Source: a virus
Lineage: Duplodnaviria; Heunggongvirae; Uroviricota; Caudoviricetes
Direction: 5' to 3' (one strand)
Length of the DNA stretch: 16,143 nt
IMG/VR virus record: IMGVR_UViG_2660238511_000011
The notes below the pieces were generated by a model that saw only the letters and a list, made by a program, of their open reading frames with translations, searched no databases and was not told where the DNA came from. Both the position numbers and the translations under genes were made by a program. Positions 8,923-9,184 of this stretch are shown piece by piece (within the stretch, counting starts at the first letter, position 1; every line of letters begins with the position of its first letter).

Positions 8923-8959
8923 AAAAAAAGTCCTGGGGTTAAGTAAGGAACTCCAGGAC
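8923..8959 (-). terminator. Intrinsic-terminator-like hairpin plus 7-U tract immediately before the capsid ATG; candidate attenuator
   Basis: Minus-strand RNA reads GUCCUGGAG-12 nt loop-CCCCAGGAC-UUUUUUU-AUG. The 3-prime arm of the stem contains the capsid Shine-Dalgarno AGGA. Confidence 0.55.
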
Positions 8960-9012
8960 GCGGCAAACACTCAACCGTTTTTCATAAGGAAATCAGTAAT
9001 CGCACCGATCGT

Positions 9013-9060
9013 TTTCCCGCCTGGTAATGAATATTGGCGAGCACATTAACAGGCGGGAAA
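9013..9060. repeat. Perfect 11-bp inverted repeat TTTCCCGCCTG / CAGGCGGGAAA separated by 26 nt
   Basis: Half-sites at 9013-9023 and 9050-9060, inside the capsid leader. Confidence 0.6.
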
Positions 9061-9137
9061 GTGGCCCCAGCGTCCTGGCACCACGGGCGAGAATAATCAT
9101 GATTCAGTTCGGGTAAAATATGCCGATCCGCTCAGTG

Positions 9138-9184
9138 AACAACGTGGAACAACCACGAACAAATAATTTACAAAAAATAACAAA
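9138..9184 (+). promoter_or_regulatory. Copy B of the AACAACGTGGAACAA motif with about 10-bp-phased AACAA repeats, overlapping a candidate late promoter on the minus strand
   Basis: AACAA units at 9138, 9148, 9158, 9169 (TACAA) and 9179. On the minus strand a candidate promoter reads TTGTTC (9142..9137), 16-nt spacer, TATTTT (9120..9115). Confidence 0.45.

Follow-up and report, generated by a model that had tools for sequence, protein, structure and literature searches.

The stretch of DNA analysed here (the window; 16,143 nucleotides, IMG/VR virus record IMGVR_UViG_2660238511_000011) carries its genes on the minus strand. A tyrosine integrase gene (16143–14914) is followed by a gene for a 62-aa AlpA protein of family PF05930 (14539–14351) and by small open reading frames (ORFs), as assigned with Pfam and PHROGs, and then by a D5/P4-type primase gene (12377–10629) with a probable replication origin (ori) downstream that contains TCTACC-type iterons (10380–10625). 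After the origin come three small ORFs and a PerC-family gene (9750–9589), and an HK97-type packaging module provides the capsid, prohead protease, portal, head-completion and connector proteins, HNH, TerS and TerL. An island in Escherichia coli STEC1587 that is 99.5% identical to the window is inserted within tqsA, and its RefSeq annotation shows neither tail nor lysis genes. Because of this gene content and this near-identical island, we classify the window as a capsid-forming phage-inducible chromosomal island (cf-PICI) of the EcCIEDL933 type, a family described in 10.1101/2022.09.08.507074 and 10.1101/2025.02.11.637232; it combines int, alpA, a primase and an HK97-type packaging set with the absence of tail and lysis genes, a length of about 15 kb and a chromosomal attachment (att) site. 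The published work shows that cf-PICIs build their own capsids and borrow only tails, and that tail-less capsids are released even without a helper phage. In the cf-PICI and PICI literature that we searched, no promoter, terminator or leader is mentioned for the packaging operon, nor how the operon is switched on. Here we describe the region ahead of its first gene, the HK97-type major capsid gene (7765..8922, minus strand), which may serve as the control region of the whole operon.

The region was compared with leaders upstream of related capsid genes, which were taken from GTDB genomes (Shigella, Rosenbergiella, Citrobacter, Erwinia and Gilliamella), from IMG/VR (retrieved by protein and by the conserved box TTTTGTAAATTATYYGT) and from a Klebsiella-derived 16.5-kb "phage" record. 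The comparison set consists of 63 distinct leaders of two types, 25 of type A and 38 of type B. Type A, the window's kind, comprises leaders from E. coli and Shigella and also a single divergent one, L061. Type B comes from IMG/VR contigs whose host is not recorded, as well as Klebsiella-derived, Rosenbergiella, Citrobacter and Erwinia loci, and it occurs in E. coli too, where at least one island (L193) lies in the chromosome. Synteny and common modules establish that the two types are related. A window-type region is present in 358 of 5,426 complete E. coli genomes at 95–100% identity, and the RefSeq annotation places nothing there. The window's leader is also 98% identical in O157:H7 genomes, the serotype of EDL933, which carries the prototype EcCIEDL933.

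Upstream of the leader, one promoter-like arrangement has a fixed geometry in 62 of 62 distinct leaders: a TTTACN or TTTTCT hexamer, 16 nt, a TAnnnT hexamer, and 6 nt to the T of a TGG that opens the first hairpin of the leader. In the window this comparative promoter, P_cap (9090..9117, minus strand), consists of a -35 TTTACC (9117–9112), a 16-nt spacer and a -10 TATTCT (9095–9090), and its predicted start near 9083 would give a leader of 161 nt. An initial annotation of the window had proposed that the capsid operon has a weak promoter of its own, and the fixed geometry argues that it does. The hexamers named there, TTGTTC and TATTTT with a 16-nt spacer, do exist (9142–9137 and 9120–9115), but their assignment finds no support, and the true site appears to lie about 27 nt downstream. 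The proposed -35 is the third unit of a phased TTGTTC array, and the proposed -10 (9115..9120, minus strand) overlaps the comparative -35; a TAnnnT hexamer stands at the position of that -10 in 24 of 24 type A leaders and in none of the 38 of type B. The leader length shortens accordingly from the suggested 185 nt or so to about 161 nt. P_cap matches the consensus at 8 of 12 positions and the earlier candidate at 7 of 12. A promoter scan of 8600–9700 returned no promoter-like site, so neither of the two was reported by it. A long-range helix that appears in a fold started at 9110 was set aside. In it GATTATTCTC (9089–9098) is perfectly complementary to capsid codons 2–5 (GAGAATAATC, 8907–8916), a complement that reaches 11 nt in most relatives (CCG as codon 2) and that would enclose the whole leader if transcription began upstream. 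The helix is probably irrelevant because its sequence runs into the -10, because many variants (AGT at 9097–9095) weaken it with no compensating change, and because type B lacks it.

Several conserved features precede the promoter. An intrinsic terminator found by the terminator scan (AGCCGGAGCAATCCGGCT plus T-run; 9180..9203, minus strand) stands just ahead of a conserved box in nearly all type A relatives. It belongs to a pair of identical 23-nt copies at 9182–9204 and 9545–9567, 363 bp apart (AAAAAGCCGGATTGCTCCGGCTG on the plus strand; repeat family D12), whose stems (9203–9186 and 9566–9549) each fold at -12.6 kcal/mol. The terminator at 9180–9203 would close an upstream accessory cassette and insulate the capsid promoter from upstream transcription. 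The small accessory ORFs that lie between the PerC-family gene and the capsid promoter have one of these two terminators on either side, an arrangement that suggests a moron-like cassette inserted together with its own terminator. The gene for the PerC-family protein itself (53 aa; 9589–9750, minus strand) lies two small ORFs upstream of the promoter. PICIs commonly carry PerC-like genes as cargo, and one such gene has been reported to repress LEE, the enterocyte effacement locus (PMC11773190). The PerC-family protein is an unlikely activator of the capsid promoter because it is missing from many islands with the same leader.

The conserved packaging module begins at the box that follows, the AT-rich TTTTGTAAATTATTTGTTCG (9156..9175, minus strand), which is unique in the window (0 matches expected). 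It stands upstream of capsid genes in 56 of the box-matching IMG/VR stretches and likewise in Klebsiella, Rosenbergiella, Erwinia and Citrobacter loci, and it may be part of an activator site or an UP-type site. Three TTGTTC repeats in 10-bp phase (9162–9157, 9152–9147 and 9142–9137, minus strand) lead from the box toward the promoter; the corresponding pattern, TTGTTCNNNNTTGTTY, has 5 matches in the window against 0.23 expected, a number reached in 0 of 200 shuffles. A six-unit TTGTT(C/G) array, also in 10-bp phase, lies between int and alpA at 14822–14875 on the plus strand, directly after the int stop codon and about 290–340 bp upstream of alpA in the opposite orientation, and a two-unit array (1579–1594, minus strand) lies near the far end of the island. 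Type B relatives have phased TTCR triplets in the position equivalent to that of the capsid array, and phased GTTCA arrays occur about 350 bp upstream of the alpA homologues of two Klebsiella-type islands (L002 and L075).

From its position and phasing, the TTGTTC array is likely to be a protein-binding array upstream of the promoter. AlpA is a reasonable candidate for its binder because the window, L002 and L075 all have similar arrays ahead of alpA, and because AlpA is reported to autoactivate its promoter in E. coli PICIs; Gram-negative PICIs are described as transcribed unidirectionally with AlpA as the activator (PMC6092414). We infer from the weak consensus match, the terminator just upstream and the phased repeats that P_cap is probably a weak, insulated promoter of the sigma-70 type that depends on an activator, with AlpA as the candidate. 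The repeats were also considered as replication iterons. That assignment was rejected, as the iterons of the origin are of the TCTACC type (10380–10625) and as L193, an E. coli cf-PICI whose replicase is a different one (DUF927), has the same array before its capsid promoter. The sequence TGTAAATTATTTGTTC (9159–9175) together with the further TGTTC units (9137–9162) has an architecture that resembles sites for phosphorylated ArcA (ArcA-P), a resemblance only. ArcA-P sites are direct TGTTA repeats about 11 bp apart, and ArcA is a host factor that F-like plasmids have co-opted for tra expression.

Structure prediction over 9110..8920 on the minus strand, the check proposed with the initial annotation, recovers the hairpins described there at a stability beyond chance, with z = -5.1 to -5.6 for the whole leader fold and 0 of 200 shuffles as good. 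The 5'-terminal hairpin, P1 (9061..9084, minus strand; GUGGUGCCAGGACGCUGGGGCCAC), starts at the predicted +1. In its inner stem, 3 of 4 pairs have changed on both sides from one type to the other, and all cells (100%) remain paired; in type B, 24 of its 25 positions are invariant over the 38 distinct leaders, and the sole variable one is an internal-loop A/C. The long hairpin P2 (9013..9060, minus strand) consists of the 11-bp GC-rich inverted repeat already noticed in the initial annotation, with arms TTTCCCGCCTG (9060–9050) and CAGGCGGGAAA (9023–9013), and an inner 5-bp stem. In type B it is hypervariable with compensatory arms (62 two-sided changed cells against 19.8 in shuffles, 0 of 500), and L061 keeps it in a different register. 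Type A C-to-U variants produce G.U wobble pairs on this strand only, and RNA of the minus strand is therefore the only compatible reading. A small hairpin, P2b (8991..9010, minus strand; GAUCGGUG CGAU UACUGAUU), is found in type A only and has 97.9% of cells paired with one-sided changes only.

The leader ends in P3 (8930..8961, minus strand), a terminator-like hairpin that also sequesters the ribosome-binding site (RBS). Its stem pairs GTCCTGG (8959–8953) with CCAGGAC (8936–8930) over 7 bp and is extended by 3 bp of GUU/AAC across a 1x1 loop; the Shine-Dalgarno (SD) sequence AGGA (8934–8931) lies within the 3' arm. Between P3 and the capsid ATG (8922–8920) there is nothing but a tract of seven U (8923..8929, minus strand; T7 at 8929–8923), which would serve at once as terminator tail and as spacer between SD and AUG. 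The earlier description of a terminal stem of 7–9 bp with UUUUUUU abutting the start codon and the capsid AGGA in its 3' arm was thus correct in each particular. Folded alone, P3 reaches -14.1 kcal/mol (z = -4.2; 0 of 200 shuffles as good), which is at least as stable as both canonical upstream terminators. The consensus terminator scan misses it solely owing to the 1x1 internal loop; it is a stable G+C-rich stem-loop with at least five U directly after the stem. The SD lies in a stable helix, with AGGA unpaired at a predicted probability of about 0.001 and a mean of 6.1–6.6 of the 7 SD-region bases paired in full-length minimum-free-energy (MFE) folds. A CC-to-UU variant of P3 swaps G-C for G.U and closes the internal loop with the pairing kept, and in L061 the stem is 9 bp long, with two-sided changes. 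Across type A, L061 and type B, P3 stays paired by such changes, as does the inner stem of P1. Within type A, 98.6% of cells are paired and no two-sided changes occur, so that covariation is uninformative there. By these features P3 and U7 should act in type A as an intrinsic terminator as well as an RBS lock.

The two leader types follow one plan: P1 from the +1, a long P2, and a final P3 with a purine-rich RBS in its 3' arm and the capsid ATG 3–8 nt downstream. This architecture is shared among Enterobacterales satellites. The U-run after P3, by comparison, is limited to one lineage, with U7 or U8 in 25 of 25 type A leaders (L061 included) and no U-run in any of the 38 type B leaders, so that the terminator is not retained throughout the homologous leaders. 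Burial of the RBS is predicted for both types and likewise for the single Gilliamella-type leader, which is AT-rich and unrelated and in which the start region and AUG are buried in a 10-bp helix. In this Gilliamella leader (L007, 2875–3003) the octamer CAGATATG occurs twice, once across the capsid start codon and once about 125 nt upstream, partly within the first hairpin, and both copies could pair with CATATCT, the arm in which the start codon is buried; they may be an independent version of a decoy-arm layout, one that is statistically weak in such AT-rich DNA. Between P2 and P3, type B leaders have a C-rich, G-poor, unstructured tract of conserved composition (for example L002 12234–12250; CCUCCCCUCCAAGCGC and variants), which could be a Rho-loading site in place of the type A intrinsic terminator. 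Many type B islands (L002 12081–12122; L004, L006, L075 and others) also have a terminator-like hairpin between the conserved box and the -10, of the form ACCCCnGTCT..GACGGGGGT plus TTTTCTTT, whose U-run also serves as the -35 region. In these islands a terminator and a promoter seem to be fused back to back.

P1 and P3 share a sequence that would allow one to open the other. Segment A (CCAGGACGC, 9078–9070), made up of the 5' half and loop of P1, is a copy of the 3' arm of P3, and segment C (GCGUCCUGG, 8961–8953), the 5' arm of P3 plus two bases, is its perfect 9-nt complement (p = 0.007); nowhere else in the leader does P1 find a longer one. The complement in type B leaders is another one of 8 nt, AGACGUGA / UCACGUCU (p = 0.02), which can be extended to 12 bp and lies in the equivalent place, 34–40 nt before the ATG in both types; the complements of the two types have a GACG loop and a CGUC core in common. 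At 4 of 12 pairs the A:C helix differs on both sides between the types, and 81.5% of cells are paired compared with 25–51% in slid controls. This covariation is suggestive; it amounts essentially to one evolutionary event and is not proof. Segment A can thus pair with the terminator arm in a helix that is mutually exclusive with the terminator.

Folds of nascent transcripts agree with such an exchange. When segment C has emerged and the 3' arm of P3 has not, the MFE fold has A:C formed and P1 open in 63 of 63 leaders, and in the window this state holds for transcripts of 131–147 nt at -51.4 to -53.9 kcal/mol. With segment C shuffled, P1 opens in only 21–29% of cases. At full length, 60 of 63 leaders return to P1 plus P3 with the SD paired (-59.9 kcal/mol in the window), and the full-length fold of L061 remains A:C. 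The folding model therefore gives the leader three predicted states, namely P1 alone, A:C with no terminator and the RBS free, and P1 plus P3 with both the terminator and the RBS lock in place.

We read the region as the control region of the packaging operon, from capsid to terminase, in which a weak activator-dependent promoter would be coupled to a cis-acting attenuator and translational lock, and we hold this reading with about even confidence. The island's activator, with AlpA as the candidate, would turn on the insulated promoter, and the resulting 161-nt leader would fold into P1, P2, P2b and P3, its default state at equilibrium being OFF. P1 would form first during RNA synthesis. Once segment C emerges, pairing would begin at the conserved GACG loop and the CGUC core, A:C would become the fold of lowest energy, and a short window of time with neither terminator nor sequestor would open in which polymerase may clear the U-run and the first ribosomes may load. 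Later, or wherever P1 stays closed, the leader would relax to P1 plus P3 and be locked and silent. A protein handle that biases the switch would fit with P1 being so invariant in sequence. It is a more speculative and rather unlikely extension that the leader works as a self-contained co-transcriptional RNA timer, in which a decoy of the SD arm within the 5' hairpin captures the terminator arm and a protein acts through P1. Were it true, the P1-binding protein could come from the island, as free capsid or scaffold-domain protein or as some other product, or it could be a host factor that is conserved, and capsid synthesis would be under feedback control that could operate without a helper phage.

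A number of points weigh against the attenuator and lock. The start, the termination and the read-through are predictions, and the ON state depends on assumed co-transcriptional kinetics, as the OFF fold wins at equilibrium by about 6–14 kcal/mol. The covariation of P1, A:C and P3 comes essentially from a single split, type A against type B, with the segments invariant within types, and so has small statistical weight. The strict invariance of P1 in type B fits a protein-binding site equally well. A lock on the structural gene whose product is needed most abundantly is odd. As to the activator, within the 14 kb covered L193 has the array only at the capsid promoter and none upstream of alpA, which makes the link to AlpA a weak one.

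The initial annotation had likened the layout to lambdoid late control, in which a processive Q-type antiterminator, possibly supplied by a helper, would read through the hairpin. P3 and U7 do have the full signature of an intrinsic terminator in all type A leaders, and, as was noted then, no antiterminator is recognisable in the island, on which Pfam and PHROGs agree. The induction of EcCIEDL933 requires a helper phage through alpA (10.1101/2022.09.08.507074), and the published capsid preparation with alpA overexpression still had the helper HK106 (strain JP24598). The resemblance to a Q module nevertheless fails in several respects. Pfam and PHROGs find no Q-family gene among the island proteins. 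The Q modules of lambda, 82 and 21 are marked by a sigma-70 pause element that resembles a -10 and lies beside the Q-binding element within the initial transcribed region, and no TAnnnT hexamer of this pause type is present in +1..+30 (TGGTGCCAGGACGCTGGGGCCACTTTCCCG). The promoter and leader show no similarity to 50,697 phage records, as blastn in distant mode matches the capsid coding sequence only, or by chance (E >= 1). Type B relatives have the same promoter and leader plan with no U-run. Processive antitermination would also leave the SD sequestered, and the leader holds an anti-terminator and anti-sequestor segment of its own. A Klebsiella cf-PICI yields tail-less capsids in a non-lysogenic strain (10.1101/2025.02.11.637232), and a helper-supplied factor is for this reason not generally required; in E. 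coli type A islands a phage contribution is conceivable and, in our judgement, unlikely, and as the leader seems to carry a built-in anti-hairpin, no helper antiterminator in the style of lambda would be needed. We regard Q-type antitermination as improbable overall. The island's AlpA was also considered as a Q-like antiterminator, in view of the antiterminator AlpA of Pseudomonas aeruginosa with its eight-helix, 21Q-like fold (PMC9371919). This was rejected, as a PDB sequence search with the 62-aa PF05930 protein returned only 8c3t and did not match the P. aeruginosa protein; the two share the name alone. Leader-peptide attenuation was rejected as well. Upstream there is a single ORF, of 35 codons from ATG 9100; it lacks an SD, starts upstream of the predicted +1 and is not conserved in L061 or type B.

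The leader might instead be a static 5' untranslated region with no switch, in which P1 stabilises the message, P2 is a spacer, P3 with the U-run acts as a leaky attenuator or weak RBS, and the complementarity of P1 and P3 is incidental. P1 begins at the predicted +1, a position at which 5' hairpins protect E. coli mRNAs, as established for ompA; the equilibrium state is the OFF fold, and A and C are invariant within each type with no direct sign of selection on their pairing. Against this stand the location of P1's longest complement in the same place in both types despite differing flanking bases, the formation of A:C in every nascent fold but in only a minority of the controls, and an SD unpaired so rarely that it ill suits the hundreds of capsid copies needed per particle. 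We consider a static leader unlikely on balance. The strong structure of the type A leader and its end in a terminator with a U-tail would also allow the terminated leader itself to be the main product, a stable RNA of about 155–161 nt (P1-P2-P2b-P3-U7) that acts in trans. There is precedent for regulatory RNAs from terminated late leaders (PMC7547250), and lambda 6S RNA and StxS RNA, both from terminated PR' transcripts, would be its analogues. Type B, however, keeps the architecture without the terminator, there is no Rfam match, and a review of O-island 51 gives no small RNA for that island and lists only RgdR, so that we find a trans-acting RNA quite improbable. Least credible, and very improbable in our view, is that the inverted repeats are DNA operators (+1..+25 and near the start codon) for a repressor or another DNA-binding protein. 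P1, which directly follows the promoter, is indeed a near-palindrome that does not vary in type B, but the type B half-sites are asymmetric (a 1-nt against a 2-nt internal loop), variants of the G.U type are tolerated on the transcribed strand only, and the distance from P1 to C varies by about 24 bp among leaders, which suits RNA pairing and not phased DNA sites.

The attenuator and lock proposed here share features with several known systems. Lambdoid late control (PR', Q-binding element, sigma-70-dependent pause, tR' and 6S RNA) likewise has a promoter and a leader of about 160–190 nt that ends in a hairpin resembling an intrinsic terminator upstream of virion structural genes. Beyond the lack of a Q gene, a pause element and sequence similarity, the terminator here lies directly against the start codon, includes the SD, does not occur in sister lineages and faces an anti-terminator sequence carried by the leader itself; the promoter is weak and follows phased repeats, whereas the lambda late promoter is constitutive. 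Classical attenuators (trp, pyrBI and the bgl/sac ribonucleic antiterminator, RAT) also have a terminator hairpin with a U-run, one arm of which can pair alternatively upstream in a choice made during transcription. Here the topology is A:B / A:C / C:D, and a 5'-terminal hairpin some 100 nt upstream holds the competitor locked. A conserved leader peptide is absent, no ligand or protein is known as a sensor, and the same helix occludes the SD of the first gene. As is predicted here, in RBS-sequestering leaders (the MS2 maturation gene, hok tac/ucb/fbi, lambda cIII and rpoS) the start region is buried at equilibrium and becomes accessible only while the RNA adopts a transient or alternative fold in which its 5' end takes part. 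The present leader has no sequence or family relation to these; its sequestering helix is local, its 5' element would be an activator and not an inhibitor, and in type A the lock is joined with a terminator.

Among satellites, the late promoters of P4 (Psid and PLL, with Delta/Ogr and Vis) are comparable as weak, activator-dependent promoters of late or morphogenetic genes, and both elements have an AlpA/Vis-family protein and a P4-type primase. The promoter sequence here is different, however, with no TGT-N12-ACA dyad and no zinc-finger activator gene seen, and P4 has no capsid gene and no comparable leader. The put RNA of HK022 is a further parallel in that structured RNA near the transcript start could itself let polymerase pass terminators, but the present leader has no similarity to any phage record and would work by competition for a terminator arm, not by modification of polymerase. 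The kind of device, an attenuator combined with an RBS-sequestering leader, is thus known, and the motif, its topology and its setting in a satellite capsid operon appear to be new. What emerges is a conserved and unannotated control region, with a promoter of fixed geometry, phased repeats and a leader of three predicted states, in which sister lineages retain the RBS lock without the terminator. Its unusual topology, in which the anti-terminator is locked inside the 5'-terminal hairpin, belongs to a candidate RNA motif that is absent from Rfam: at the gathering score, Rfam 15 gave no match over the whole window, and the type A and type B leaders gave only sub-threshold chance matches.

Some further features of the window concern the genes downstream and the origin. 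The Pfam Phage_capsid match of the capsid gene is split over two ORFs, since codon 276 is an in-frame TGA (8097–8095, minus strand) in the window and TGG (W276) in the intact 385-aa gene of L001, an island otherwise 99.5% identical. The change breaks the 385-aa capsid into ORFs of 275 and 109 aa and reflects either a sequencing error or the decay of the island by nonsense mutation. The window also contains two N runs, 124 bases at 4561–4684 and 22 bases at 5640–5661. The second lies within the head-completion gene and is flanked on either side by a perfect 41-nt direct repeat (5599–5639 and 5662–5702), which looks like an assembly gap or artefact rather than biology. The probable origin downstream of the primase gene consists of many direct and inverted (T/A)TCTACC iterons around an AT-rich stretch. 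In the Klebsiella-type island L002 (11700–11950) the iterons are TGTTCACC instead of the TCTACC type, an octamer that we take to be the iteron of the phage P4 alpha protein.

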